From Malacoraja senta (taxonomy: Eukaryota): 64,000 nucleotides of DNA. The stretch's first letter is position 1; each line of letters begins with the position of its first letter. The DNA lies in contig CM075988.1 of assembly GCA_038087875.1 (NCBI GenBank), forward strand, positions 27,344,001 to 27,408,000, in the 5' to 3' direction. This document shows positions 3,301-62,467 of the stretch, in pieces. Both the position numbers and the translations under genes were made by a program. The notes under the pieces were generated by a model. The model made no database searches and had not been told where the DNA came from. It saw nothing but the letters and a program-made list of their open reading frames with translations.

Positions 3301-3435
3301 CTCATTTTCAATTTGTGACTTAAGGACATCAATCTCCATCGATATTTCAACCACCTGATTTACCAAATCCTCTCCATTTTTTAAACTTGGGATGAACTCC
3401 TCATACTTCTTGTTTATTGTGTTGCAAACTTCACC
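3301..3435 (-). CDS. ZW10: ZW10 coding exon 2
   Basis: ttttttcctag acceptor, 135 nt, GTAACT donor, phase 0; GEVCNTINKKYEEFIPSLKNGEDLVNQVVEISMEIDVLKSQIENE matches ZW10 GEVCNMISKKYSEFLPS...DIDLLKSRIESE. Confidence 0.95.
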
Positions 3436-6257: not shown

Positions 6258-6610
6258 CGGATACGTTTGCGCGCGTGCAGGACACGAGCCGCCAGGCCTT
6301 TGGTGTTTTCACCTTGACTTCCTCCACACGACGAGCCAGGCGGCCGATCTTGGTGCCGATATCGTCCTTCTCCAGCTTTCCCGCCGACTCCAAAACCTCG
6401 GCCACGAACGACGACATCTTCCAGCCTCCACCGCGCAGATGGCCGCAAGGCACGGCGGGAAATGTAGTTTATATTGCGCACACACCTCCCGTGAGCCTCC
6501 ACTGCGCAGATGGCCGCAAGGCGCGGCGGGAAATGTAGTTTATAACCGCACACAACTCCCGCGAGCCTCCGGGCGCCCCAGCGCAAGGCGAGGCGGGAAA
6601 TGCAGGTCAT
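6255..6610 (-). promoter_or_regulatory. CpG-rich ZW10 promoter/first exon with three tandem ~71-bp units
   Basis: High CpG density. Units start at 6423, 6494 and 6564; each carries GGCGGGAAATG(TAGTT), whose reverse complement ACTACATTTCCCGCC is a ZNF143/THAP11-type ACTACA-N2-TCCC motif overlapping an E2F-type TTTCCCGC. YY1-like AGATGGCCGC in units 1-2. Confidence 0.7.
6313..6417 (-). CDS. ZW10: ZW10 kinetochore protein, coding exon 1
   Basis: ATG at 6417-6415; translates [35 protein letters not shown], matching the recalled vertebrate ZW10 N-terminus ([35 protein letters not shown]); 105 nt followed by a GTGAAA donor. Confidence 0.95.
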
Positions 6611-7479: not shown

Positions 7480-7610
7480 GGATGGGTACATACTGAGTAA
7501 CGTCCTGCACCCTGGAAGAGCAGTGTCCAGAGTGGTTACAGTGGGTTTCTGGTGACATCTGATCTCTCTCTTTGGATCAGGTTGCAGACCGTAGTGACGA
7601 GGCTTCAATG
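7480..7610 (-). pseudogene. Histone H3-like segment A3 (alphaN region)
   Basis: Reads KPRHYGLQPDPKREIRCHQKPT versus H3 [22 protein letters not shown]; after a frameshift, LLFQG..QDVTQY resembles LPFQR..EIAQD. Confidence 0.65.
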
Positions 7611-11029: not shown

Positions 11030-11200
11030 ACCCAAGTAAAGGTCTTACCTGAATTCCCGAGCGTTGTCCCATACCAGGCACGGGAAGGCAGTTCAGCGGA
11101 GAAGCAGCTCAGTCTATTCCCAGTAGCACCACATCCTCCTCAGGAACACAGAAGAGTAAGGAGCGATGAAGCTTCTACATGTTTCCCTTGGTCCATGGCC
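11030..11200 (-). pseudogene. Histone H3-like segment A1
   Basis: KLHRS..(frameshift)..LRRMWCYWE*TELLLR*TAFPCLVWDNAREFR*DLYL versus H3 KPHRY...[37 protein letters not shown]; same reading frame as A2 across a linker with one stop. Confidence 0.75.
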
Positions 11201-12824: not shown

Positions 12825-15800
12825 CAGCTGGATCTCTCTGCACCCCCAACCTGGACAGCCTCTCTGCACCAGCAACGCTGCACCAGCTGGATCTCTCTGC
12901 ACCCCCAACCTGGACGGCCCCTGCACCTGCTCTGCTCGACGCCTCTCTGCACCTGCGCTGCTGGACGGCCTCTTTGTTCCCTCACTGCTGGACACCTCGC
13001 TGCACACGCTCTACCGGATGGCCTCTCTGCTCACCCACCGCTGGCTTCTCTCTCCACCTGCATGGACGCCTCTCTGCACCTGCACCGCTGGACAACCTCT
13101 CTGCCGCTTCATTATGATCAAATACTCGGCTCTGCGGCTGACTGGTCTCTCCAACAATCACACCCCATCCTGCATCCCAATCATTAAACAATTTGGACTT
13201 CTGCGTCGACCCCGTTACATTCACAGAGGCTCTCAACGCAAGCTTGTTTGCTCCGGCCATAGACATTCCATTCCATCCATCTGCTCACTATCACGCTCTG
13301 CCCCCCCCTCAACCGCGTCACCCCCCATCCCAGCTGACCACATGCACTGTCAACTGGGACAACCTCAGATCTCTCCAGCCTGCCCCCATCCCTCCACCCT
13401 CTCACAATGCCAACTTTGTCCTCCTCAACACCCGGTCGCTCAACAACAAAGCCCTTGCCCTCCATGAACTAATCCTTGACAACACTCTTGACTTCCTTCT
13501 GCTCACTGAAACCTGGCAACAACCCAATGTCTTCTTCTCCCTCAATCAAGCATCCCCATCTGGATTTAATTATATCTCCAAACCCCGCCCCTCCCGCCAT
13601 GGAGGCGGCCTTGCTGTTATTTTCAACCAGAACTTTCCGATCGCTGAACTCCCCCTCCCCCCAGTAGCATCATTTGAATTCCTTGCCTTCAAAGCCCTTT
13701 CCTCCATGACAGTCATCCTCATTTACCGGCCACCTAAACCAAACCCCTCCTTCCTATCTGACTTCACTGAATTCCTCACACTTGTCTCATCTCTCCCCCC
13801 ACGTCTGCTGCTACTTGGTGACTTAAACATTCATATGGACTCCCCCACCTGCAAGTTCGCATCTGAATTCGCTTTTTTACTTGACAACCTCTCTCACTCA
13901 GCACGTCACCTTTCCCACTCATGACAAAGGTCACATCCTTGACCTGGTCTGCTCCACAAATCAACCGGTACTCGACCTCCATCCATGCCTCTTCCCCCTC
14001 TCTGATCATAAGCTTATACGGTTCACCATCCCTTCTCCGACACCTCGCCCCCGCTTCCTCCGAGAAATCACCTTCCGTAATCTAAAATCCATCGACCCTC
14101 ACCATCTCTCTGACCTGCTCTCCACCACTCTCCCCCTGGACTCAACCCACATCTCACCTGATGATCTCACAAACCATCTCAATTCCACCTTGTCTACCTC
14201 CCTTAACACTCTGGCCCCCCTCAAAACAAGAACCGTAACTTTTAATAAATCTTCACCCTGGTACACAGCTGCACTTCGTAAGCTGAAACAGATTGGTCGC
14301 CGACTTGAACGACTCATAAAGAAATCACCTCTCACAGTCCACCATGAAACTTACAAACTCCACCTCACTGCCTACAAAGATGCCCTCATTGCTGCTAAAT
14401 CTGCCTACCTCTCCTCCATATTCACCAACCCCTGCCTAAACCACAGAACCCTCTTCTCCACAGTGTGCAACCTCCTCAAGCCTCGAGCCATCACTCTCCC
14501 TACCTCCACTCCGGATCTCTGCAACTCATTCCTCCACTTTTTCGCTGACAAAATCAGCACCATCTATCAATCCCTATCCCCTGTACCCGACTCCCCAGCA
14601 TCTACTCCACCACCTACCAAGGCCCCTCCTTTCAACATCTCCGCTGATCTCCATATCCCTCCCCCTCACTGCTTCCTCTCCCAGTTTGACCCGGTCACCC
14701 CTACTGAAATCTCCAAACTCATCAGCTCTTCCAAACCCACTACCTGCTCCCTTGACCCTCTCCCCACTCCCCTGCTGAAGTCCTGCCTCCCTGCTCTCTG
14801 CCCCTACCTCACTAATCTTTTCAACTCCTCATTGTCCCAAGGAATTGTCCCCTCTGCTTTCAAAACTGCTGCTGTCACACCAATCTTAAAGAAACCTGGT
14901 CTTGATCCCTCCTCTCTCATTAACTACCGCCCTATCTCAAACCTCCCCTTTTTATCAAAAACCGTGGAGCGTATCGTCGCGTCACAACTTCATTCCCACC
15001 TCCTCGCGTATAACCTATTCGAACCCCTCCATAGCACAGAAACTGCTCTCCTCAAAGTCCTCAATGACCTCCTTACCTCTGCTGACACTGGCTCCCTCAA
15101 TATCCTCATCCTCCTCGACCTGAGTGCAGCCTTCGATACCGTCAACCATAACATCCTGCTCACCAGACTTAGGGACCTTGGCATTGAAGGTTCTGCACTC
15201 AGCTGGCTCCGTTCCTACCTTTCCAACTGATCCCACTTCATCTCTCTCCATAACCACACCTCTGCCACAACCACTGTCACTCAAGGCATTCCCCAAGGCT
15301 CCGTTCTTGGTCCCCTCCTCTTCATCATCTACATCCTTCCCCTTGGTCATATACTCCGTCACTTCAACCTGGACTTCCACTGCTATGCTGATGACACCCA
15401 GATCTATCTCAGCACCAAGTCCCCCCACCACCCCCTCTCTCCCATATCAACTCCTGCCTATCAGCCATCAAATCTTGGATGCAATTCAACTTCCTTAAAT
15501 TAAACAGTAGCAAAACAGAATTTCTCCTCATTGGCTCCAAATCAATACTCACTAAAATTAACAACCCCACTCTCACTATTGACGGCACCACCGTCTCCCC
15601 ATTTCCTCAGGCAAGCAACCTTGGCGTGATCTTTGACTCAACCCTCTCCCTTGAGCCTCACATCCGCCATGTTGTCAAAACATCATTTTTTCACCTCCGC
15701 AACATTGCCAAAATCAGATCCTCTCTCACACCCCCCGCTGCTGAAAGACTCATCCATGCCTTCATCTCCTCCCGACTGGACTACTGTAACTCTCTTCTCT

Positions 15801-16356
15801 TTGGAATCAATTCCAGCAGCATCAACCGACTCCAACTGGTCCAGAATGCAGCCGCTCGACTCATTACCCACACCAAATCCTGGCACCACATCACCCCAGT
15901 TCTCAAAGAACTTCACTGGCTTCCCATTTCCCACCGGATCACCTACAAAATCCTGGTCCTCACCTACAAAGCCCTCAACAACTTGGCCCCCCCTTATCTC
16001 ACTGACCTCCTCTCCCCGTACCAACCCTCACGGTCCCTCAGGTCCACATCAGCTGGTCTCCTCTCCACTCCGAAATCAAACCTCTGCACTTTTGGAGGCA
16101 GAGCCTTCTCCAGGGCAGCTCCCAGGCCCTGGAATTCCCTCCCACAACTGGTCCGAAATTCTGAGTCCCTCACCATCTTCCAGTCCCGCCTCAAGACCCA
16201 TCTCTTCACCTCTGCATACCCTTAGTCCCATGTTCCCCTCCCCTTTGCATCTCTGTCTTACTGCTCTATTTTGTTTTGTTTATTCTTGACTCTCAATGTA
16301 AAGCGACTTTGAGTCCTGAAAAGCGCTATATAAATAAAATGTATTATTATTATTAT
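12825..16356 (+). mobile_element. L2-clade LINE, near-complete ORF2 (APE endonuclease + RT), inactivated
   Basis: EN motifs LLNTRSLNNK, LTETW, GGGLAV, IYRPP, GDLNIH, SDH; RT motifs [34 protein letters not shown]2 C-terminus SRLDYCNSL, HITPVLKELHWLP; (TAT)n tail. Frameshifts near 13890 and 15430, TGA at 15228-15230, deletion of the QSGFR motif; CTGCAC at both junctions (12819-12824, 16358-16363). Confidence 0.95.
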
Positions 16357-17493: not shown

Positions 17494-17754
17494 CACTTGT
17501 CTCGGCGGTCACTTCCGCTGCCGGGTTCGTCCTTGTTCGTGGCCACTGCGGGCCGAGTCCGGTCTTGAGCGGCTTCAATCTTCATTCAAGTCCACGGTGA
17601 TCATCAATTTGTCAACAGAAACCGACATGGTAAATGGAGACAAGAATGGAGTCTTGAAGATTCCCGATCCAAACCGTTGTCTGTGCAATCCCTCCACAGA
17701 TGAAATGTCCTCTCGGAGTCATGTCCTCAACCGACCTCCGGCACCCACCTTCAA

Positions 17755-17990
17755 ACAATCTGGAGGAGATCCAGGCACCCTAAGAAATCCTACCAAGTTG
17801 TTCCTCAACAGCTTCTCCAGCGCCAGGTGTGGAAGTTCGCAGAGTACGTGAAGCAAGATTGGGTCTTCAGGATCTTCAAGCATCTGACATGCAAGTCCAT
17901 GATGATCGTCAATCTTGGCCATTTCCTGTCATCAGAAACCGACCTGGTAAATGGAGATAAGAATGGAGTCTTGAGGGGTCTCGATCCAAA
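17755..17990 (+). pseudogene. Histone H3-like segment B1
   Basis: LEEI...QRQVWKFAEYVKQDWVFRIFKHLTCKSMMIVNLGHFLSSETDLVNGDKNGVL versus H3 LREI...[51 protein letters not shown]; a further partial copy lies at 17580-17670. Confidence 0.6.
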
Positions 17991-18061
17991 TGTCAACTGT
18001 CCATTCCCTCCACAGATGCTGCCTGACCCGCTGAGTTCCTCCAGCAGTTTTCTGCTCCACC

Positions 18062-18240
18062 ATCGCTGACTGCTGAGCTCTAAAAACTCATCTCCATCAT
18101 GGTCTTCCACACCTGGCGCTGGAGGGCAGTTTACAGAGGATCAGCTCCACATTCCCAGGGACACCAGATCTTCCTCAACAACACAGCAGGGTCAGGTGTG
18201 ATGAAGCCTCTGCGTGCCAGCCCTGGTCCATGGCCGTCTC
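18062..18240 (-). pseudogene. Histone H3-like segment C1
   Basis: With frameshifts: RLHHT*PCCV.LRKIW...ELILCKLP.QRQVWK...EMSF*SSAV versus [16 protein letters not shown]...[15 protein letters not shown]...DLRFQSSAV. Confidence 0.75.
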
Positions 18241-19039
18241 ATCAGATATTGTCCCCTGGTCAATCACAGGAAGCATGGCGGAAGTCGATGACCTCAGGAG
18301 GGGAAAGCCAATGATCCACAAACTTGTCTTCATTCATGGGACAGTGGTGAAGAAAGTTATGTTGCAATTTCCTGGGTGTCCATGTCTCTGAAGATCTGTC
18401 CTGGATGTCCTCACACATCTCCTTAACCTTGTCTCTGCTCAATCCTGTACAACTAGATCTTCAATTTCCTCATCAGCAGACCACAATCAGCACAAACAGG
18501 CAACACCTCCTTCTCTATAACCAACACAGGACCAGCTCAAGGCTGTGTGATCAGTCCCCTGCTCTATGACCAGGACTGCACAGCCAGACCATTCCAATGC
18601 CGTCTTTGAATATCACCAACGATACCACCGTTGTTGGACAAATGATGGGTAATGATGACAGGTAATGAGTACAGGAGAGAAATTGTACAGCAGTGAAGCT
18701 TGGGTGACTTTTGTTCTCAATGTCCGCAGGACCACAGAGCTATTTGTTGACCTCAGGAGAAAGCCGCAGATCCACAAACTTGACTTCATTGATGGGACAG
18801 TGGTGGAGAAAAGTACGTTCCAAGATCCTGTTTCAAGTTCCTGGGCGTTCATATCTCTGAACATCTGTCCTGGTTCCGACGCGGGTTCCATTTTGTTCTC
18901 CACATCACTCCTCGTCCGACCTCCGGCACCCACCGCGGGCCCGTCCTAGGCTGCCCACCGCCGGGTCCTCTCTTGGTCCTCACCCATTCATTTACCGTTC
19001 TTGATGTAGGTAAGTCACCCAAGCTTCACTGCTGTACAG

Positions 19040-19830
19040 TAACGTGTTAAACACTCACGCGTTGTAGACAGTTACCTTGGTCTTCATTGTATGTTTCCTG
19101 TTCTTCCATGTCCACTTGCTTAGTCTCCCGAAGGTGGGTGCTGTAGAGGAAGGTGGTTTACTGTACGTGAATTAGTTTACTCATCCAGAGAGTGGCTGTC
19201 AGTCACCGTAGATCCTAGGTTGGTGAATTTAAGACATTTTCCAGCGTAGTGGAGTTTATGGTGATTTCAGAGGGGAATGGAGTGCCCTGAGCCATGACAA
19301 CAGTCATCTTAACGCTGATTGCTGGTCGGTCTTTGGTGCAAGTATGAAACCGTCTGTCCATCAGCCTCTGAAGTCCTTCTTCTTTTGGGGAACTGAGTGC
19401 AGCATCAGCGGGCTGGAGTTCCCTTACAAGCACAGTTCTCATCTTCATCTTGGCTTTCAACATTGCCACACTGAAGAGCATCCCATCACTTCTGGTTTGA
19501 AGATACATGTCTTCCATGCCTGTTGGGAAGGCAAAGGGCAGATCGGAAGATGCCGAACACCATGGGAGTTGGGACATACCCTTGCTTCACTCCACTTCTC
19601 ATGGGGAAACTGTCCGATGTAGCTTCATCAAATTCCACTGTTGATGCATGTTCTCATGGAAGGAGGTTTAGAAGACGTGGTGGACATCTAAACTTCTCCA
19701 ATAGCTGATAGAGGCCGTGTCTGCTGACGGAATCAAAAGCTTCTGTAAGATCCACAATGGGGTTAGCTGCTCTTGACATTTTTCTTGGAGTTGACGCAGG
19801 GAGAAGATCATGTCCGTTGTGGATCCAAGT
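19040..19830 (-). mobile_element. RTE-clade LINE RT fragment
   Basis: STTDMIFSLRQLQEKCQEQ and TRSDGMLFSVAMLKAKMKMRTVLVRELQPADAAL; further pieces at 21400-21650 (NYRDISLLSVTGKAFARVIL) and 28540-28705. Confidence 0.85.
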
Positions 19831-20026
19831 CTTCGGAGGAACTTTCCCTCCGAAGACTTGCAGGAAAATGTCACTGGGCCAGATGATGAGTCAGAGCCAG
19901 ACGAGTTTGACAAATTTCTTAAACGCTGTGGATTCTCACGTGCAACAGATCGCTGCCAGTTGTACTGGGAAATGTTGACAATGAAATCCCAAATGAAGAT
20001 GAGATCACGGGCGGGGAAGAGGTTGT

Positions 20027-20061
20027 AGCTCTTTCTAGTAGTGGCTCTTAAAAGGGCCTTT
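20027..20061 (-). terminator. Replication-dependent histone mRNA 3' stem-loop plus U7 histone downstream element
   Basis: Minus strand reads AAA GGCCCT TTTA AGAGCC AC TACTAG AAAGAGCT: 6-bp stem with one mismatch and 4-nt loop (20058-20043), then purine-rich AAAGAGCT (20034-20027). Confidence 0.8.
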
Positions 20062-20080
20062 GTTGGACAGAGTGAGAAAT

Positions 20081-20150
20081 TCCGGTGCGGTCCCCACCGA
20101 TGTGGCTTCATATCCGATGGTTTTACACGAACGGCTCGGGTTCCTGACAT
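20081..20150 (-). pseudogene. Histone H3 C-terminal remnant
   Basis: RAVRVKPSDMK resembles KRVTIMPKDIQ; after a frameshift CAC ATC GGT GGG GAC CGC ACC GGA resembles the codons for RIRGERA*; lies ~20 nt 5' of the stem-loop. Confidence 0.65.
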
Positions 20151-20349
20151 CCATTTTCTCTGTATTTGGGCTTCTGTTGCGTGCTATCCAATCCCTCTTG
20201 GAGTTGCACGGGAATCCACACCGTTTAAGAAATTTGTCAAACTCGTTCAGCTCTGACTCATCATCTGCCCCAGTGGCATTTTCTTGTGAGTCTTCGGAGG
20301 GAAACTTCCTCGCAAACAGCTGGCGACCACATCAGTCGGCAGATGTTTC

Positions 20350-20600
20350 ATGCTTTCCCCTTCACACCGTCTGGAGGATATCCGGGGCGACAAGAAGTCC
20401 CACCAAGTTGTTCCTCAACAGCTTCTCCAGCGCCAGGTGTGGAAGGTCACATTGAACATGGAGCTAGATTGGGCTTTTGGGATCTTCAAGGATCTGTCAT
20501 TCAAGTACACGGTGATCATCAAACTTGACCATTTCCTGTCGTCGGAAACCGACCTGGTAAATGGAGACAAGAATGGAGTCTTGAGGATCCCGATCCAAAC
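20350..20600 (+). pseudogene. Histone H3-like segment B2 (in stop-free ORF 20350..20883)
   Basis: LEDIRGDKKSHQVVPQQLLQRQVWKVTLNMELDWAFGIFKDLSFKYTVIIKLDHFLSSETDLVNGDKNGVLRIP aligns to H3 from alphaN through loop L2 (...[17 protein letters not shown]). Confidence 0.6.
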
Positions 20601-20714
20601 TTCAACTGTCCCCTCCCTCCGCAGATGCCGTGTTCTCTCGGCGGCACGTCCTCGACCGACCAGCAGCACCCAACGAGGACCCGTCCTCGACCGACCGCCG
20701 GCACTCACACATCT

Positions 20715-20965
20715 GTCATGTTTGTCCCTTCAAACAATCTGGAAGAGATCCATGGCCACAAGAAATCCCACCAAGTTGTTCCTCAACAGCTTCTCCAGCT
20801 CCAGGTGTGGAAGGTCGCACAGAACGTGGAGCAAAATTGGATCTTCAGGATCTTCAATCATCTGTCACTCCAGTCCATGGTGATCATCAATCTTGCCCAT
20901 TTCCTGTCATCATAATCCAACCTGGTAAATGGAGACAAGAATGGAGTCTTGAAGGGTCCCGATCA
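20715..20965 (+). pseudogene. Histone H3-like segment B3
   Basis: ORF 20625..20915: LEEIHGHKKS...QLQVWKVAQNVEQNWIFRIFNHLSLQSMVIINL versus [10 protein letters not shown]...[33 protein letters not shown]. Confidence 0.6.
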
Positions 20966-21041
20966 AAAAATCATCTGTCCACTCCCTCCACAGATGTAGC
21001 CTGACCCACTGAGTTCCTCCAGCAGTTTTCTGCTCCAACTT

Positions 21042-21210
21042 CGCTGACAGCCGAGCTCTATAAAGGCACCTTCATCATGGTCTTCCACTGAGAGCAGTTT
21101 ACAGAGGATCAGCTCCACGTTCCCAGGGACACCAGATCTTACACAACAACACAGCAGGGTCAGGTGTGATGAAGCTTCTGCGTGCAAGCCCTGGTCCATG
21201 GCCTTTTTGT
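21042..21210 (-). pseudogene. Histone H3-like segment C2 (paralogue of C1)
   Basis: KLHHT*PCCV...ELILCKLL...*SSAV; DNA closely matches 18062-18240. Confidence 0.7.
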
Positions 21211-22678
21211 CAGATATTGTCCTCTGGTCAATCACAGGAAACATGGCAGATGGTCGACGACCTCAGGACGGGATAGCTGATGATCCACAAACTTGTCTTC
21301 ATTCATGGGACAGTGGTGGAGAACGTTATGTTGCAAGTTCCTGGTTGTCCATATCTCTGAAGATCTGTCCTGGGTCCAGCACATCAGTGTAATCACACAC
21401 AACACTTATGACCACCTCTAAGCTTTCGTAACATCCACAAAGGCGATGAACATGGGGTTTGCTGCTCTTGACATTTTCCTTGTATTTGACGCAGGGGGAA
21501 GATCATGTCCATTGTGGATCTATCTCCATGGAAACCGCATTGTGCCTCAGGTCAGCGAGTCTGTGCAGTCTTTGCAGGATCACTCTGGCAAAGGCCTTTC
21601 CTGTAACACTCAGTAGTGAGATGTCCCTGTAGTTGGTGCACTCCCTTGTTCTTGTACAATGTGACGATGTTGGTGTTACGCAGAAACTGCTCAGTCCGTC
21701 ACAGGTGATGATCCCTTCACCATCAAAGGGATCTGCAGGAGATGCTACCTGCAAAAGGCAGCTAATATCAAAGACCCACAATGCCCTACCACAGAAAAAC
21801 TAACAGAAGCAGGGAAACTGACCTCCATGTTTAAGAGCAGCTTCTTGCCAGCAATTACAAGCCTCTCGAACACTGCACAACATGAACCACAACGATGAGA
21901 TATTATGGACTGCGTAATTTGCTGCCCGACAGATGTTTTTACACTAGCATTTAATTCATAATTTCCTGGATTTTTATTTTATTAGTTATCTGTGTGTTAT
22001 TGCACTACGCTCCCATTATTTTTGTTCAGAAGCCCCAAAAACGTGACCTCCAGGTTCAGGAACAGCTTCCCAGCAACCATCAGGCTCTTGAACACTGCCC
22101 AACACAAACCACATCTGTGAACTGTGAAGAACTATGGACTGAGTCTTTGGTTGCATTACAGACATGTTTACAGTAGTATCGTGAGTATAAATTTACTGAA
22201 ATGTAAATGAATGCCTTTTTGTGTGTTCCAACATAGGCTGTTAATCTACAGCAAGAAATACACCCCCCCCCACTCCCACATCCCCCTCCCCCACACACAC
22301 CATCCCCCCCACCCACACCCCTCCCCCACCCCCCCCCACTCACAACCCCTCCCCCCCACACATACACCCCTCCCCCACACACACCGCACGCCCACACCTC
22401 ACGCCAGCCCACCCCCCACCACTGCCCACACACCGCCCCTTTTCATCCCAACAAAGCTCGCTGCCCCCCTCCCTCCCCTCCCCTCCACACACATCCCTCC
22501 CCCACACACTCCTCCCATACACAACGCCCGCCCACACACACCCCGCCCAACACAACCCAAGAACTCTGCACTTACATCCTCCTCACAGTTCACACTGCCA
22601 CCCAGCTTTGTGTCAATTGCAAATTTGCTAATGTTACTTGTAATCCCTTCACCTAAATCATTAATATATATTGTAAAT

Positions 22679-23601: not shown

Positions 23602-24779
23602 AGGGCCAGTCTCACTTGGGAGACATTTTTGGCGACAGCCTGACGTGGTTGTCTCCTCGTGGTCGGATCGTGACGCGGTGTGACGCATGTAGTGACGTGC
23701 AGTGTCTCCCTATGGCCCCTTGATTTTGAACATTTTCAAAATCCTGGGGCAACATCTGGGTGTCTCATCATGTCGTGCGCCCTGTCACACGCTGACGTAT
23801 GCTGTCCTGCGGGTGACCCCCGGTTAGGGTTAGGGTAAGGGACCACAGATGGGCTGTAAAATATTCTTCCTTCAATGCATCGATTTTAAACATTCATATA
23901 TAAAATTAATACAATAAAATTAATTGTGCAAATAAAAAGATGTCTGAGTCGTTCAGTTTTATTTACAGATGTATTGGTCCGCTTCCAGATCCAATCACTC
24001 AGTTTTCAACTGTACCCAGTTGAACAGCCCGCTTATACTCATACCAAGCCTATCAACCTAGAGTTAGGGTTAGCATTAGGGTTAGATTTACGGTTAGGGT
24101 TAGGATTAGGGTTATGTCTAGTGTTAGGGTTAGGGCACGGGTTTGTATAAATTGTCCCTAGTGTGTGTGGAATAGTGTGCGGGTATTAACTGTTGGCAGG
24201 CTGGGTTCACAATGGGGGCATCGGGGAAAATGTGGGGGGGGGGGTTGGAGAATGGGAGAAGGGAGAGAGAGGGGTAGAAGGGGAGAAGAGTGGAGCGGGG
24301 AGAAGGATGAAGAGGGGAGAAGAAGAGGGGAGAGGAGAGTGGGGAAGGGTAGGGAGTAGTGGAGAAGGAGGGATGGGCCAGGAGAGGGGAAGAGGGTGGT
24401 GGAGGGGAGAGGGGAGTTCAGTCTACACTCATTGAATCCATCCCTGTGAAAAGTTAGAAACAGTGATTGGCTCTGAAGCGGACCAATACATCTGTAAATA
24501 AAACTGAACGACTCAGACATCTTTTCATTGGCACAATTGATTTTATTGTATTAATTTTAATATATTAATGTTTAAAATCCATGCATTGAAGGAAGAATAT
24601 TTTACAGCCCATCTGTGGCCCCTAACCCTAACCCTGATCCTAACCCTGATCCTAACCCTAACCGGGCGTCACCCGCAGGACAGCGTACGTCAGCGTGTAT
24701 GTCGTACAACTTGACGGTTTTACGGACGCGTCACTGATGCTCGCAGTCGCCGAAAAAATGGCAAAGTGGGACAGGCCCT
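23602..24779. mobile_element. Harbinger-like MITE (same TIR family as 11604-16397) inside a CR1, carrying a foldback element
   Basis: Ends AGGGCCAGTCTCAC...GTGGGACAGGCCCT; flanks TTA/GTA; the interrupted CR1 sequence (gatcctgtta|ctgctatccaaatg) rejoins across it, compare 9500-9525. Confidence 0.8.
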
Positions 24780-25723
24780 GTACTGCTATCCAAATGTGCC
24801 ACCATTTCATCTTTTATAATTGACTCCAGCATCTTCCCCACCACCGATGTCAGGCTAACTGGTCTATTATTCCTTTTTCTCTCTCCTGTCTTTCATAAAT
24901 GTGGGATAACATTAGCTCCCCTCCAATCCTCAGTCACATCAGTTTACCAACACCATTTCCTGCCTAATGTGGATTTCCTTCAGTTCCTCAGTCACCCCAG
25001 ATCCTCTGGCCACTAGTACATCAGGAAGATTGTTTGTGTTCTCCTTACTGAAGACGGATCCAAAATACCTGTTCAACTCATCTGCCATTTCCTTGTTCCC
25101 CATAATAAATTCACCCTTTTCAGTCTTCAAGGGTACAACTTTGATCTTAACTATTTTTTTCCTCTTCAAATAACTAAAGAAGCTTTTATTATCCTCCTTT
25201 ATATTTTTGGCTAGCTTACCTTTGTACCCCCCCCCCCCACCGCAGCCCCCTCCCCTCGCACCCCCCACCACCACCACCCCTCTCCCTCCTCCCACTTCCT
25301 CCTTCCCCCACACACACCTCACCCCCACACCCACCCCTCCCCCACACCCCCCTCCCCCACACACCCCCTCTCCCACACACCCCCACTCCCCTCCTCCCAT
25401 GCTCCCTCCCCTCCCCCAAACACACCCCACTAGTCACTGCCTGCCATTCTGAAAGGGACCCGTTAATCCCTACTTTGTTTTCCTGTCTGCCAACCAATTT
25501 TCTATCCATGTCAGCACTCTACCCCCAATACCATGTGCCCTAATTTTGCCCACTAATCTCCTATGTGGGATCTTATCGAATGCTTTCTGAAAGTCCAGGT
25601 ACACTACATTCACTGGCTCTCCCTTGTCCATTTTCCTAGTTACATCCTCAAAAAAATTCCAGAAGATTAGTAAAGACTGATTTCCCCTTCTTAATTCCAT
25701 GCTGACTCGGACCGATCCTGTTA

Positions 25724-27132
25724 AGGGCCAGTCCCACTTGGGAGACTTTTTGGCGACAGCCTGAAGAGGTTGTCGCGTTGTGGTCGGGTCGTGACTCGGT
25801 GTGACGCATGTAGTGACGTGCGGTGTCTCCCTGTCGCCCCTGGATGTTGGAATGTTCAAAATCCAGGGGCAACATCTGGGTGTCTCATCATGTCGTGCGC
25901 CCTGTCACACGCTGACGTATGCTGTCCTGCGGGTGACCCCCGGTTAGGGTTAGGGTAAGGGTCCACAGATGGGCTGTAAAATATTCTTCCTTGCATGCAT
26001 CGATTTAAACATTCATATATAAAATTAATACAATAAAATCAATTGTGCAAATAAAAAGATGTCTGAGTTGTTCAGAATTATTCACAGATGTATTGGTCCG
26101 CTTCCAGATCCAATCACCCAGTTTTCAACTGTACCCAGTTGAAAAGCCCACTGCCTCTGGGGGTTTGGAGAGACAATTGGAATAGAGATCTGCCCTCTGG
26201 GACAACTCGTGGCCAACAGTTTAGTTCCCATGAGCAGGCAGAAACTGGGGGTTCGATCCCAACCGCTGGGGCCCCTGTATCACATTTAGTTCAGAGATAC
26301 AGTGCCCTTCGGCCCACCGAGTCCGCACCGACCAGCGATCCCCCGCACACTGTCCCACACACGCCAGGGTCAATTTATATATATACCAAGCCTGTCAACC
26401 TAGAGTTAGGGTTAGGGTTAGTGTTAGAGTTATGGTTAGGGTTAGGGCTCGGGTTTGTATAAACTGTCCCTAGCGTGTGTGGGATAGTGTGCGGGTATTT
26501 GCTGGTCGCAGGCTGGGTCCACAAATGGGGGGCATCGGGAAAAATGGTGGGGGGGGGGGGGTTGGAGAATGGGAGGAGGGAGAGGGGGAGAAGGGGATGA
26601 GAGGGAGGGGGGGAGTGACGAAGGGGAGAAGAGTGGAGCGGGGGGAAGGGAGGAAGAGGGGGTAAGGGAAGAAGGGGGGAGAGGGGAGGGGAGAAATGTA
26701 GGGGGGGTTAGTGGAGAAGGAGGGATGGAGCAGGAGAGGGGGTAAGAGGGGGGTGGAGGGGAGAGGGGAGTTCAGTCTACACTCACTGAATCCATCCCTG
26801 TGAAAAGTTAGAGACGGTGATTGGATCTGGAAGCGGACCAATACATCTGTAAATAAAACTGAACGACTCAAGACATCTTTTCATTTGCACAATTGATTTT
26901 ATAGTATTAATTTTAATATATTAATGTTTAAAATCCATGCATTGAAGGAAGAATATTTTACAGCCCATCAGTGGACCCTAACCCAGACCCTGGCCCGAAC
27001 CCTAACCTTAACCGGGCGTCACCCGCAGGACAGCATACGTCAGCGTGTATGTCGTACAACTTGACGGTTTTACCGGCGTCAGTCCCTGACGCTCGCAGTC
27101 GCCGAAAAAAATCACAAAGTGGGACAGGCCCT
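25724..27132. mobile_element. Second copy of the MITE + foldback composite
   Basis: Same TIRs and identical CR1 insertion site as 23602-24779; has an extra ~230-bp SINE-containing segment (~26146-26375). Confidence 0.8.
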
Positions 27133-28707
27133 GTACTGCTATCCAAATGTGCTGCTATTTCATCTTTTATAATTGACTCCAGCATCTTCCCCACCACCGA
27201 TGTCAGGCTAACTGGTCTATAATTCCGTTTTCTCCCGTCTTTCTTAAATGTGGGATAACATTAGCTACCCTCCAATCCTCAGTCACATCAGTTTACCCAA
27301 CACCATTTCCTGCCAAATGGGGATTTCCTTCAGTTCCTCAGTCACCCCAGATCTTCTGGCCACTAGTACATCAGGAAGATTGTTTGTGTCCTCCTTCGTG
27401 AAGACAGATCCAAAATACCTGTTCAACTCATCTGCCATTTCCTTGTTCCCCATAATAAATTCACCCTATTCAGTCTTCAAGGGTACAACTGTGGTCTTAA
27501 CTATTTTTTCCTCTTCACATACCTAAAGAAGCTTTTATTATCCTCCTTCGTACACCCCCACCCACTTTCTCTCCCTCCCCACACGCACACCCTCCCCAAC
27601 ACCCCCTTCTCCATCCCCCACCTCCTCCTTCCCCTCCCCCCCACACACCCCCCCCACCGACACCCCCTCTCCATCCTCCCACATCCTCTCTCTGCCCGCA
27701 CTCCCACCCCCTCTCCCACAGCCCCCACCACACACACACACCCTCCCTCACCACACCCCCTCCCACCACACCCCTCCCCCACACACCCCTCCCCCACACA
27801 CCCCTCCCCCCCACCACACCCCCTACCCCACACACCCCCTCCCAAACACCCACTCCCCCACCACACACCCCCTCCCCCACACACACCCCCCTCCACAACA
27901 CACTCCCCCACTCACAAAGCCATCTCACCCCGACCCACACACCCACGCCCACAACCACCCCCACCCTCCCTCGCACGCCCCCTCCAGCTAACAATGTTTC
28001 CTGCACTCCTCCCCCATCCCCCCCACACACACCCCGCCAACACCATTTTCAGTCTTCAAGGGTACAACTTTGGTCTTAACTATTTTTATCCTCTTCAAAT
28101 ACCTAAAGAAGCTTTTACTATCCTCCTTTATATTTTTGGCTAGCTTACCTTCGTACCCAAACCCCACACCCCCTCCACCACAGCACCCTCCCCCCGCACC
28201 CCCCACCACCCTTCTCCCTCCTCCCACTTCCTACGTCCCCCTGTACTCCCTCCCCCTCCCCCACACACACCTCCCCTCCCACATCCTCCCTCTCCCACAC
28301 GCACCCCACCAACACAACACAAGAACTCTGCATTTACAAACTGAGACTTAAAAAATGGCACCAAACCTGGCCTTTGTCTACTGTCTCAATGTACTACTGT
28401 TATACACTTGTACCGTATCCGAGATTCTTATTTAAGATTTGTCATAGTATTATGTATGGTGATACGTATTAAAATTTATACAGAAATGAATTTCACTTCA
28501 GCTCAGTAAATATGACTAATAAAGAACCATTGGACATTTATAAGCACAGTTCTTACCTTGGTCTTGGCTTTCAGCATTGCTAGAATGAAGAGGTTCCCGT
28601 TGCTTCTAGTGTGAAGATACGCTCCTTCTGTGTCAGTCGTGACGACAAAGGACAGAGGGCAGATAGGAAGATGCCGAACAGCATGGGAGCTGGGACACAA
28701 CATTGCT

Positions 28708-29210: not shown

Positions 29211-29410
29211 NNNNNNNNNNNNNNNNNNNNNNNNNNNNNNNNNNNNNNNNNNNNNNNNNNNNNNNNNNNNNNNNNNNNNNNNNNNNNNNNNNNNNNNNNN
29301 NNNNNNNNNNNNNNNNNNNNNNNNNNNNNNNNNNNNNNNNNNNNNNNNNNNNNNNNNNNNNNNNNNNNNNNNNNNNNNNNNNNNNNNNNNNNNNNNNNNN
29401 NNNNNNNNNN
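29211..29410. other. Assembly gap (200 N)
   Basis: Run of n characters. Confidence 1.
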
Positions 29411-58478: not shown

Positions 58479-60070
58479 GACGTACAGGTTTGTACATTAA
58501 TTGGCTTTCTATAAATATAAATTGTCCCTAGTGTCTGTAGGATAGTTTTAATGTGCGGGGATCGCTGGTCGGCGCGGACTCATTTGGCTGAAGGGCCTGT
58601 TTCCACGCTGTATCTCTAAACGCACTGTATTGCCTTTACAGTAATCCTTGGTGAAATCAACTTTATCAGTGTCAAGCAGATGTCAAACCCTGACTGGAGA
58701 GCTCAGCTGCACAATGAATTTACGCTTCTTCTTACATCCAGTGGTGTGGTTTTTGCACACATTGTCAATTTAACAGATTATATGAAAATAAAGATATAAT
58801 ATCTATGAAAAGCACTGGCCACTTTCTTACTAGTCCATTTACTGGCACATACTGACTTACCAATGAAGGATAGAATGAGCATTTAATTTGGTGTCTCTTC
58901 CAAAGTTTCTCCCAGATTTTGCTGACAACAAATATTGTACTATGCCTGTGTGTATAAAGTCTGTAAGGCAATTAAATATCTTGGGATACAGATATAAATT
59001 TTAGTCAATCTGTTAATCGGTTAGAAATTCCCAAAATACCTTCCATGAAGTGCAGTAAAAGCGTTCTATTTTGTGGTCTATTTTATGAGCTGACATGATT
59101 GGAGGTTGGAATATCAATGCAGACAATTATGGGATAGATTCTAAGATATAATTAGGCTGCAACATGTCAGGTTAGAACAGATGACATTATCGAACCACGT
59201 TACAGAAGCAGAAGTCAAATTTCAAAGGCATGTTTATCACAGGCAATGGATGATAATTATCCAACATATGCCATTTTCTGCTCCTTATTCCAGGGAAAAA
59301 TTACTGAAACATCTGTGAGTCAACTTTACTTTCTTCTTAATTAACTAACAAGACAACAGCTCTAGCTAGTTCTTCCAAATTCAGAGGAAGTTGCACAATT
59401 TTGGGCCAGGCATTTCAATCAGCAGAAAAAATACCAACTTGTATTTTGAAAATCCTCTGATGTCAATTCTCCAGTAAGTTAGGTTACAAACCTAACTAGC
59501 AAGGACACATAGTGCCGAAAAAAAATATCCGCACAAGTTTACGTTAAAATATTTTGCAGTTGACAAAGTCACACTCAGCTTTGCTAGTTTACAAACCCAC
59601 CATAGATAACTATTTCTGGAGGTGTTTTACTGTCACTTTGTGTTTGAACCAGCTTCTTCATGTCTACTTTTCTCTAAATATATCTTTTCAATAACAATAA
59701 ATAATTTCCTTTAAGGACCTGTGATGCACGTTTAATCCTCAAGGAAATTACAACTATTTGCATTGATTTATTGTTTTTGGTTGGTCTTGATTAATACACA
59801 AAGTCAATTAAAATGTTTAAAAATATTGAAGATTTTAAAGTACATGAAAAATATTATTTAAACCTGTTTTATATAATTGAACGAAAAACAATAAAACAAA
59901 CAGTTTTTTTATTCCCCAGAATAAAAGGACATACATTTACAATGGAGATGAGGAGAAATTTCTTTAGCCAGTAGGTGGTGAATCTGGGGAACCATTGTCA
60001 CCACTAGTGGAGACGTTAATAGGCTGCTGAAAAGAAGAAGAAAAAACTTGTTCTAGAATCAACCTCCTCT

Positions 60071-60340
60071 TGTCATCATCAACTGCCCATGTCTCCCAAA
60101 TGTCATCATCAACTGCCCATGTCTCCCAAATGTCATCATCAACTGCCCATGTCTCCCAAATGTCATCATCAACTGCCCATGTCTCCCAAATGTCATCATC
60201 AACTGCCCATGTCTCCCAAATGTCATCATCAACTGCCCATGTCTCCCAAATGTCATCATCAACTGCCCATGTCTCCCAAATGTCATCATCAACTGCCCAT
60301 GTCTCCCAAATGTCATCATCAACTGCCCATGTTTCCCAAG
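60071..60340. repeat. 30-bp minisatellite, 9 copies
   Basis: TGTCATCATCAACTGCCCATGTCTCCCAAA x8 identical plus one variant copy; no spacers. Confidence 0.97.
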
Positions 60341-62467
60341 CTTGAGATGTTCTTCAAATCATTTGGTTATCCTCCAGAATAACAACTCTACAATCTCCCC
60401 TTTCAACATTTTTAATATTTGGTTCTCTTGCTGAATAATGAAAAACAATACCTAAATCTTCACTAAATTTCCCCTTTAGAATCCTTTGCACAGCCATATA
60501 TCCTTTCCCAAGGTTTAGAGGGTCACAGTTTCAAAACAATAGACAATTTTAAACTGGGTAAATTATCTCCAAGGAATAAAGACATTCTTTCTCAGACCAA
60601 ATCAAAAAGCAGCGATTAGCACCTATACTTACATAAAATCCAGGAATGTTTCATTACTTTGTTGACGTTAATTGTAGGAACACATTGAAATTCAGGCCTA
60701 AGCGCTGAGACTTTAAATGGAGAAGAAACTGTGTGAGGATATCTGTGTGGTGATATAACATCTGCACAGAAAGTCCCACTTTTGTCTTGCCAAACGTAAG
60801 TTGCACTCAAGTAATGCATACCTCCCACACACCGACAACCTGGGGAAACTGTTCTCTTATTCTGTTCAGCTGATCATTATTTCCATACAATTTGTTATAA
60901 AAATCAAGGCCAGTAATAATTAACGCCTAATATCTTCTCACGGGTTTAATAAGCAAATTACATGATTAAAGCCTAATTGGACCATTATATCTTAGAACAA
61001 GAGAACGTCAGTCAACAGATAATAACGAGACAGCCTCGATTCCGATTAAATTTCCAAGGATTTGGGGAAGGACAGATCAAGGTTGATTCAGATTCACAGC
61101 ATTGCAGATTTTCTCTCCTTTACACATCAGGTAACCGCAAGGGATAATATGGGAGGGATAATATTCTCCTGTCACCAGAACTCATTCCAAGCTGAATTAT
61201 ATGTCTGACAGACACAATTCACTTCACTGTCCATAAACAGCCAGTTACAATTTCCCAAGTACATAATATTCACGGCTGGCTTGAAAAGGCCAACGGTTTG
61301 TGGTGCTGCTTTGTTGGCTGATAAACCGTAAAAGGAGGACTCCAGGTTCTTGAGATTTACATAAAATAATAGGGCCGTAGGATTGAAACTTCACAGTGCT
61401 CTGGAAGCTCCATGTTTTGTATTAACTACTGTCAGAGACATAAAGCTCAGACAACCATGCTCTACAGGATTGCTATTCCAGATGCAGATCATCATGCAAT
61501 CTAATAAATAGTTTGGAAATTGCAAAGGATCCATAATTTCTGTATTTACTTTCTGTCAGAATCAATCGCTTATCAGAAAACAATAAGACACCAACAATTG
61601 TTTAGCAGCATTAGCATTGCAGAGGGAAGATGAAAATGACAGCACCATATAACTCTGCCTGCCTATTTTAGTTTCGTTTAGAGATACAGCATGGAAACAA
61701 GCACTTTGGCCCACCCCGGCCGCACCAACCATCGATCATGCGTTCACACTAGTTTTATGTTATCCCACTTTCTCATCCACTCCCTGCACACTAGGGCAAT
61801 TTATAGAGGCAATTTAAACTACAAACACACATGTTTTGGGATGTGGGAAGAAACTGGAGCACCCAGGGGAAACCCACACAGTCACAGGGAGAACATGCAA
61901 ACTCTGCACTGACAGCACCAAGGTCAGGATCAAACCCGGGTCTCTGGTGCTGTGAGGTTGCGGCTCCACCGTCTGCACCACTATTATTGAGATTTTCATT
62001 CACAACGCATGCAGGCAATTATCTATAAGTTCTACATCACCTAATGGGTGTAAGATGAGAGAGCAGGGCACCAACCACCATTTTGAACATTAGCTCCACT
62101 CTAAATATCAGTTGCACCTTTGGCCCAAGGGTGACCAGACCTTTATATTGCCAATGATGATGAATGCAGTGAAGCTGAGGACATCTAAATTCTGCAACTT
62201 GGATGGTAGTGGGGAAGTGAGAGCAGTGCCAGGAGTATTTTGATTGATAGAAGACTTAGATCTGATACCAGCACATGGTGGGGCATTGGGGACATCAAAG
62301 AGGTAGGAGATGCCGTGGGGAGGTCGGTGAAGTGTCAATTCAAGAGGTCAAAGCCTGGCCCAAGACATTCTAAGATTCAAAAGACAGGGCCTCAGGAATT
62401 TGCAAGGTTGGGAAGACAGACTGGATCTCAGGGGATAATGACAGATTGCACAAAGGGTGAAGGTATG

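Follow-up and report, generated by a model that had tools for sequence, protein, structure and literature searches.

On the minus strand of a 64-kb stretch of the Malacoraja senta genome (hereafter the window), the last codons, stem-loop and downstream element of a replication-dependent histone H3 gene lie next to each other in decayed form. Our results make it quite probable that this module represents the 3' end of a degenerate H3 gene, embedded in a multi-copy mosaic of H3 and LINE fragments, which likely arose by DNA-level copying and is probably without function.

Results

A degenerate histone stem-loop followed by a purine element

The first-pass annotation of the window, made from the letters alone, had placed a stem-loop and a purine-rich downstream element (HDE) within 20027..20150, and the sequence is as it described: the minus strand reads AAA-GGCCCTTTTAAGAGCC-ACTACTAG-AAAGAGCT across 20058-20027 and the AAA flank (Table 1). 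The Histone3 model of Rfam (RF00032) aligns over its full length (model positions 1-46) to 20018-20063 (-) with a score of 26.8 bits, which is its sole match within the 64-kb window. This score falls below the gathering threshold of 34 bits, and a default search misses the site. With an E-value of 8.8e-5 in 2.5 kb and of 0.0022 when the whole window is searched with all 4227 families, the full-length homology to the model is beyond chance. A stem-loop PWM built from 174 real ends scores the site at 28.1 bits, compared with 15.6 bits for the second-best site of the window and 17.1 bits for the best site in the reversed control, while the real ends themselves have a minimum of 24.8 bits and a 5th percentile of 29.4 bits (n = 174). 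Judged by its sequence, the hairpin is homologous to histone 3' ends and lies at the low edge of the real range. The comparison set behind these values covers at least 118 metagenome loci with a stem-loop downstream of an H3 end; the sequences taken from metagenome loci comprise 45 distinct full H3 CDS, 19 each for H2A, H2B and H4, five for H1, and the 174 distinct stem-loop ends, which are probably mostly of invertebrate origin.

The single stem mismatch and the 8-nt spacing pointed out in the first-pass annotation are both present. C20055 stands opposite A20046, so that the six-pair stem with a four-base loop is interrupted by a C-A combination at pair 4, and the spacer runs from 20042 to 20035. 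On folding, five of the six stem pairs form, and the loop and the AAA flank are intact. An unpaired stem position occurs in none of the 174 real ends, although the search patterns permitted one at pair 4. The folding energy of the hairpin is no better than that of shuffled sequences (z -0.6 to -1.6). An exact histone stem-loop pattern was also found at positions 801-821 of a viral contig (L001, 29.5 kb), where no histone-like end was seen by eye in the preceding 600 nt; we set this match aside as unrelated and probably due to chance.

The AAAGAG motif, which is named as the purine core of the HDE in the accessible text of PMC7026596, occupies 20034-20029 (-) and starts 8 nt after the stem. When a distance of 3-25 nt after random anchors was searched, AAAGAG appeared in 12 of 2088 trials and the longer AAAGAGCT in one of 2088. 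Among the real ends, 23 of 174 contain AAAGAG, at an offset of 10-15 nt after the stem (mode 14) and never closer than 10 nt, whereas the other 151 are without it. The spacing of 8 nt, or 5 nt in some copies, thus falls short of the 10-15 nt seen in reference ends that are probably mostly invertebrate and not the skate's own. The shorter version results from a 3-base deletion at 20036, present in contigs of all four sequencing runs mapped below. A spacer of 8 nt predicts poor processing, and U7-dependent cleavage would be poor or absent.

Table 1. Features of the H3-derived mosaic, with positions counted from the first letter of the window
Feature	Position	Strand	Details
H3 fragment, nt 111-219	7505..7606	-	E 4.9e-4
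Best-kept H3 fragment, nt 100-250	11038..11186	-	E 1.8e-10; frameshift and stop, tblastn shows stops
H3 fragment, nt 149-246	17764..17859	+	E 1.6e-3
H3 fragment, nt 110-271	18067..18211	-	E 1.6e-7
Broken LINE reverse-transcriptase fragment	19040..19830	-	Downstream of the hairpin; Pfam RVT_1 E 0.015 on 19657-19890; local paralogues
Inverted duplication, left arm	19836..19946	+	88% over 111 nt to 20311-20203
HDE-like purine element AAAGAGCT	20027..20034	-	Nearer to the stem than in real ends of the comparison set
Spacer between stem and HDE	20035..20042	-	8 nt; some related copies 3 bases shorter
Histone stem-loop	20043..20058	-	Pair 4 broken, C opposite A; Rfam RF00032 26.8 bits
Former 3' UTR	20059..20080	-	22 nt; AAA at its end before the stem
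Decayed last ~9 H3 codons	20081..20107	-	Anchored PWM, p about 0.001; stop-codon position reads GGA
Inverted duplication, right arm	20203..20311	-	Extends over the beginning of the H3 fragment on the plus strand
H3 coding fragment, nt 36-229 with deletions	20295..20452	+	nhmmer E 8.4e-6
H3 fragment, nt 145-236	20739..20827	+	E 1.6e-4; tandem copy of the unit at 20295..20452
Paralogue of the 18067-18211 H3 fragment	21050..21233	-	90% to that copy; no direct H3 profile match

Remnant of the H3 C-terminus

Upstream of the hairpin, an H3 C-terminal remnant composed of 'VKPSDM' and 'HIGGDRT' had been read in the first-pass annotation, and the second of these two parts withstands scrutiny. A PWM of the H3 C-terminus ranks 20081-20107 as the best of about 127,950 sites in the window. 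In an anchored test on the 21-27 nt that end 22 nt before the stem, the match reached p 0.0011 (1848 random anchors), with 0.002-0.003 at 30-45 nt and 0.014 at 18 nt, whereas the ends of H2A, H2B and H4 gave p 0.17-0.86 at the same place. Since the reversed control holds 3-6 sites that score equal to the tail, its significance derives only from its position; the chance of such a tail per 26-nt slot is 0.0004-0.0007. Its distance of 22 nt from the stem compares with 19-38 nt in 118 fetched H3 ends, 38 nt being the upper bound of the search pattern. The first part, 'VKPSDM', is unsupported because it lies in a different frame from 'HIGGDRT', the PWM score drops once the match is extended beyond 27 nt, and p is 0.07 when 63 nt are tested with gaps allowed. 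Together, the hairpin and the H3-only tail uphold the proposal that the module is a replication-dependent histone gene's 3' end, and specifically that of H3.

Free searches with nhmmer and tblastn returned no significant H3 match at 20081-20150, and the H3 profile had no match at E<10 on the minus strand of 20076-20560. An intact 136-residue H3 frame colinear with the hairpin is absent, with only about nine decayed codons preceding it, and the 89 stop-free stretches of 16.3-22.0 kb held no match to a Pfam histone; no PDB histone was matched either. Of the two observations named beforehand as speaking against a histone end, a sub-threshold model score and the lack of any H3 alignment at 20081-20150, the first was made (26.8 bits, below 34) and the second was not, given the anchored H3 match. 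As in an unprocessed pseudogene, H3 homology is combined with disabling changes, and sequence past the cleavage site is retained; no poly(A) or A tract is found in 19946-20026.

The suggestion that the RNA signal is better preserved than the adjacent coding sequence could not be upheld. Among positions that are at least 90% invariant in real genes, 2 of 17 differ in the hairpin region, compared with 4/16, 5/18 or 8/23 in the tail, which gives Fisher p values of 0.14-0.40, or of 0.29-0.68 when the broken pair is counted. The hairpin differs less from its consensus than the tail, as a trend that is not significant. Selective retention of the RNA signal is unsupported because this difference lacks significance, the hairpin was picked for matching, its stem is broken and its spacer is shorter than in the real ends examined.

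H3 fragments and local duplications around the hairpin

A DNA profile built from 10 GC3-rich H3 genes and run over the window with nhmmer produced six strong matches in both orientations (E 1.8e-10 to 1.6e-3), all confined to H3 nt 36-271. These six matches with E<0.002 fall within 7.5-20.8 kb, with none elsewhere in the window, and they corroborate the H3 reading of the neighbourhood put forward in the first-pass annotation. Two further matches are weak (E 2-5), the reversed control contains one match at E 6 and none at E<1, and a weak minus-strand match at 17786-17876 (E 7) was dropped. Self-complementarity of H3 was considered as a cause of the two orientations and rejected; since H3 matches its own reverse complement weakly (best E 0.07), both orientations of the strong matches are real. 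Neither H2A, H2B, H4 nor H1 has a convincing match in the window (best E 0.15, equalled by the reversed control), and no tRNA genes were found in it.

The significant fragment nearest to the hairpin (20295-20452) lies 237 nt away on the opposite strand, and the hairpin therefore ends no colinear H3 gene. This orientation, and the position of the hairpin module within a multi-copy repeat, had been overlooked in the first-pass annotation. The region is interlaced with local direct and inverted duplicates of 75-90% identity. For instance, 20340-20627 and 20708-20996 share 83% identity, and a duplication of 17578-18404 and 20492-21373 (81%) includes the H3 fragment at 17764..17859. An identical 21-mer, inverted, is common to the fragment at 18067-18211, to 20425-20445 and to 17815-17835; it departs from the fetched H3 genes and is present in both orientations, which suggests an inversion or conversion event after the onset of decay. 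The tail and the hairpin are themselves enclosed by the inverted pair 19836-19946 / 20203-20311 (88%). We take the LINE fragment at 19040..19830 to be RTE-like, and a short palindrome at 19826-19860, where this fragment joins the left inverted arm, possibly indicates a point of fold-back.

Several open frames in this region were considered as proteins and discarded: those at 20038-20331 (-), 20290-20880 (+), 20229-20525 and 17704-18066 had no homologue, and the one at 17722-17928 (-) had none among 1.84 billion proteins. In the three copies of one unit (20392-20586, about 17782-17976 and about 20760-20954), the differences by codon position number 19, 8 and 8. A hidden coding frame in this unit was rejected, as stops occur in all three copies. 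One minus in-register frame of the unit has 16 of 37 changes synonymous (10.3 expected, p 0.02 before correction for six frames), and CpG decay is not the cause of the codon-position bias (4 of 19).

The module is a multi-copy repeat

Part of 19700-21400 is shared by 20 of the 23 sequencing runs listed, none of which contains half of its words. We mapped contigs from four runs, representing three other organisms (A, B, D and D), onto 19760-20640 (881 nt) at 80% likeness. We infer that the coded organisms are related fishes; two of the runs are of unrecorded type, one is guessed to be DNA and one RNA. None of the 23 runs is recorded as RNA, which speaks neither for nor against expression. The runs contributed 387, 379, 467 and 108 contigs, with 80-100% identity (from 99% to under 90%) and depth in all 30 bins. 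In runs X2 and X5, 13-20 contigs carry an alternative letter at single sites in 19980-20007, located 20-50 nt downstream of the HDE, and 8-9 contigs carry one at 20069. Because these numbers of variant contigs far exceed two alleles, the module is a multi-copy repeat.

The hairpin is bridged by 7 of the 32 pieces listed, with at least 31 letters on each side and 11-39 other letters, and some contigs of the other organisms span the tail, the hairpin and the flanks together. Loose contig ends at 20295 and 20329 continue into intact H3 codons and thus independently support an H3 origin for the plus-strand piece. Among the 40 variant rows listed of 170, none concerns a site inside the hairpin or tail, and other copies may have a perfect stem. 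In run X18 (guessed RNA), the depth amounts to 120-157 over 20030-20119 as against 56 and 59 in the next bins, and it is also higher over 20390-20599; contigs cannot give levels, and real H3 ends may contribute to these values. The end of one X18 contig falls at 20039, which is 4 nt beyond the stem and near the expected cleavage site; this is the same point at which the 8-nt and 5-nt spacer variants branch, and the contig end was hence not counted as cleavage.

Genomic setting

The window includes the start of ZW10 on the minus strand, whose first four coding exons are located at 6313-6417 (exon 1), 3301-3435 (exon 2), about 1913-2041 and about 417-527. Exon 2 matches a protein of Amblyraja radiata with 100% identity over 45 residues and one of Rhinoraja longicauda with 98% identity, and the other 13 of its 15 matches are to a second Amblyraja isoform and to proteins of other sharks, rays and a chimaera. 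The hairpin is situated on the same strand, 13.6 kb upstream of exon 1; a location inside a ZW10 intron was ruled out, since the usual first exon lies at 6313-6417. The ZW10 isoform P0003 has a different N-terminus; its last 24 residues match a LINE fragment at 28557-28628 (-) at 75%, as an inexact copy, and GTAAG, a possible splice donor, follows immediately after the match. If such an upstream ZW10 exon were real, transcription from the minus strand could run through the H3 mosaic and would then carry the hairpin in the sense orientation.

The GC content is 46-54% in most 2-kb bins from about 4 to 28 kb and 32-42% in most bins beyond 28 kb. The hairpin lies inside this GC-rich block, which carries LINE fragments (Pfam RVT_1, endonuclease), local duplications and telomere-type repeats. 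A long LINE with only light damage, presumably L2-like, occupies 13142-16220 (+) and includes endonuclease and reverse-transcriptase domains. The telomere-type sequence GGTTAGGGTTAG has seven matches on both strands in 23822-26445, inside duplicated blocks, with 0.01 expected. A sub-threshold match to the Rfam family MIR7533 at 26316-26518 (51.8 of 230 bits) lies over a short inverted repeat and is probably a repeat-derived hairpin. An assembly gap of 200 N is found at 29211-29410, near the edge of the block, and a tandem array of about 10 copies of a near-perfect 30-nt unit at 60011-60400.

Discussion

The last codons, a short UTR, the stem-loop and the downstream element follow one another here as they do at a real H3 gene end. 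Since the HDE, which is removed by processing, is still present and no poly(A) tract follows it, the source would have been genomic DNA or an uncleaved transcript rather than a mature mRNA. According to the available passages of PMC7026596, mature histone mRNA is devoid of the HDE, whose degradation accompanies that of the downstream product. Polyadenylated read-through transcripts of histone genes can retain the stem-loop as well as the HDE, as stated in parts of PMC9756948, and such a polyadenylated RNA intermediate is the less likely route. This copy of the gene is dead: its stop codon is lost, a stem pair is broken, the spacer is short and a colinear upstream coding part is missing. Tail, hairpin and flanks recur together as many diverged copies in the runs of other organisms, and they probably spread after decay, free of selection, through successive duplications, segmental and inverted, of a block rich in repeats. 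The mosaic would then go back to an H3 copy that decayed, that inversions and inserted LINEs broke up and that was then multiplied, presumably in this order, with duplication rather than transposition as the probable route of spread.

An alternative source of the many copies would be a distinct family of non-autonomous transposons or retroposons in skates that took up an H3 gene and moves the H3 pieces and the hairpin to new sites as cargo. Such an element would account for the many copies in three other organisms, for the 88% inverted pair flanking the tail and the hairpin and for the adjoining LINE pieces, and it has a precedent in the hAT elements of some fungi, as described in the accessible sections of PMC6710886. 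However, the right arm continues into H3 coding sequence, so that the arms are not the ends of an element, and no target-site duplication was seen by eye at the inverted arms. Moreover, all copies in the window lie within 14 kb and have shifting borders, and no transposase was detected in 348 stop-free stretches (excluding plus-strand stretches of 45-74 aa beyond 28.5 kb); clear ends of a carrier element were likewise not seen among the window copies. We regard capture by such an element as unlikely. It agrees with the preferred reading, a decayed gene end spread by duplication, in that the module is non-functional.

By contrast, a hairpin and HDE that still work would be bound by SLBP and cleaved by the U7 snRNP in a repeat transcript or minus-strand transcript, thereby giving rise to non-polyadenylated RNAs or ending read-through upstream of ZW10. 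Indeed, the stem retains five of its six pairs, loop and AAA flank are intact and so is the AAAGAG core, the element shares the strand of ZW10 13.6 kb upstream of its first exon, and strong U7 pairing can make SLBP dispensable, according to excerpts of PMC7026596. Set against the broken pair, a spacer that is both short and variable and the lack of a significant excess conservation of the hairpin, these points leave a working signal very improbable. It is tempting to speculate that a skate repeat family derived from an H3 gene has scattered histone 3'-end signals across the genome, some copies of which might be transcribed and cut at the hairpin to yield non-polyadenylated, SLBP-bound ncRNAs or might serve as U7-dependent terminators in non-histone units, for example upstream of ZW10, although we hold this scenario, too, to be highly doubtful. 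The idea of a chance look-alike, or of a histone end unrelated to the H3 pieces, could invoke the sub-threshold score, the unremarkable folding energy and the exact pattern in the viral contig, but it is largely refuted and the least probable of all, given the right order and spacing of the hairpin (E 0.0022), the H3-only tail (p about 0.001) and AAAGAG (12/2088) and the significant H3 fragment 237 nt away.

Histone genes also exist as dispersed copies, or 'orphons'. One example of a histone pseudogene or orphon with a diverged stem-loop is Hydractinia H1.3, described in the available text of PMC5011920. The skate relic resembles such unprocessed pseudogenes and orphons in being a defunct histone gene that lies outside a working cluster and whose hairpin is degenerate, and differs from them in being fragmented, inverted, mixed with LINE sequence and amplified to many copies. 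Working replication-dependent histone 3' ends (RF00032 plus the U7 HDE), as outlined in portions of PMC7026596 and PMC5011920, share with it the H3 end, the 22-nt UTR, the 16-nt hairpin with its AAA flank and the AAAGAG core, whereas the skate site scores 26.8 bits instead of 34, has one broken pair and a spacer of 8 instead of 10-15 nt, and is without an open frame, a stop codon and a colinear 5' part. As it fails these three tests of a working signal (score, stem and spacing), it would best be filed as an unprocessed histone pseudogene fragment. Unlike the histone cluster of a stingray, as far as presented in the accessible part of 10.1101/2025.06.08.657570, the skate window is free of tRNA genes and of further histone classes. 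In Dothideomycete fungi, H3 was captured and amplified by hAT DNA transposons, as a spliced transcript or retrocopy within a defined hAT element with a transposase (PMC6710886, in the sections available). This is the closest of the amplified cases. The two systems are alike in that H3 sequence was multiplied as dead repeat cargo; the skate case is distinguished by its vertebrate host, the lack of a detected carrier element and the retention of the HDE beyond the cleavage site.

In the open-licence literature, we found no description of an H3-derived repeat in cartilaginous fishes, although skate and shark repeat libraries or supplements may hold it unnamed, and the two 'histone' passages in the accessible text of the little skate genome paper (PMC10115646) concern other matters. 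The H3 composite repeat of skates is thus apparently undescribed. For annotation, our results imply that sub-threshold Histone3 matches and H3-like fragments in this setting are not genes. If any copy were U7-processed, the repeat would gain far greater significance, which the present evidence makes unlikely. Its copies would instead represent a set of neutrally drifting hairpin and spacer variants for comparison with working genes. Moreover, part of the unclassified repeat DNA of this skate derives from an H3 gene that was copied together with its processing signals, then scrambled and multiplied.
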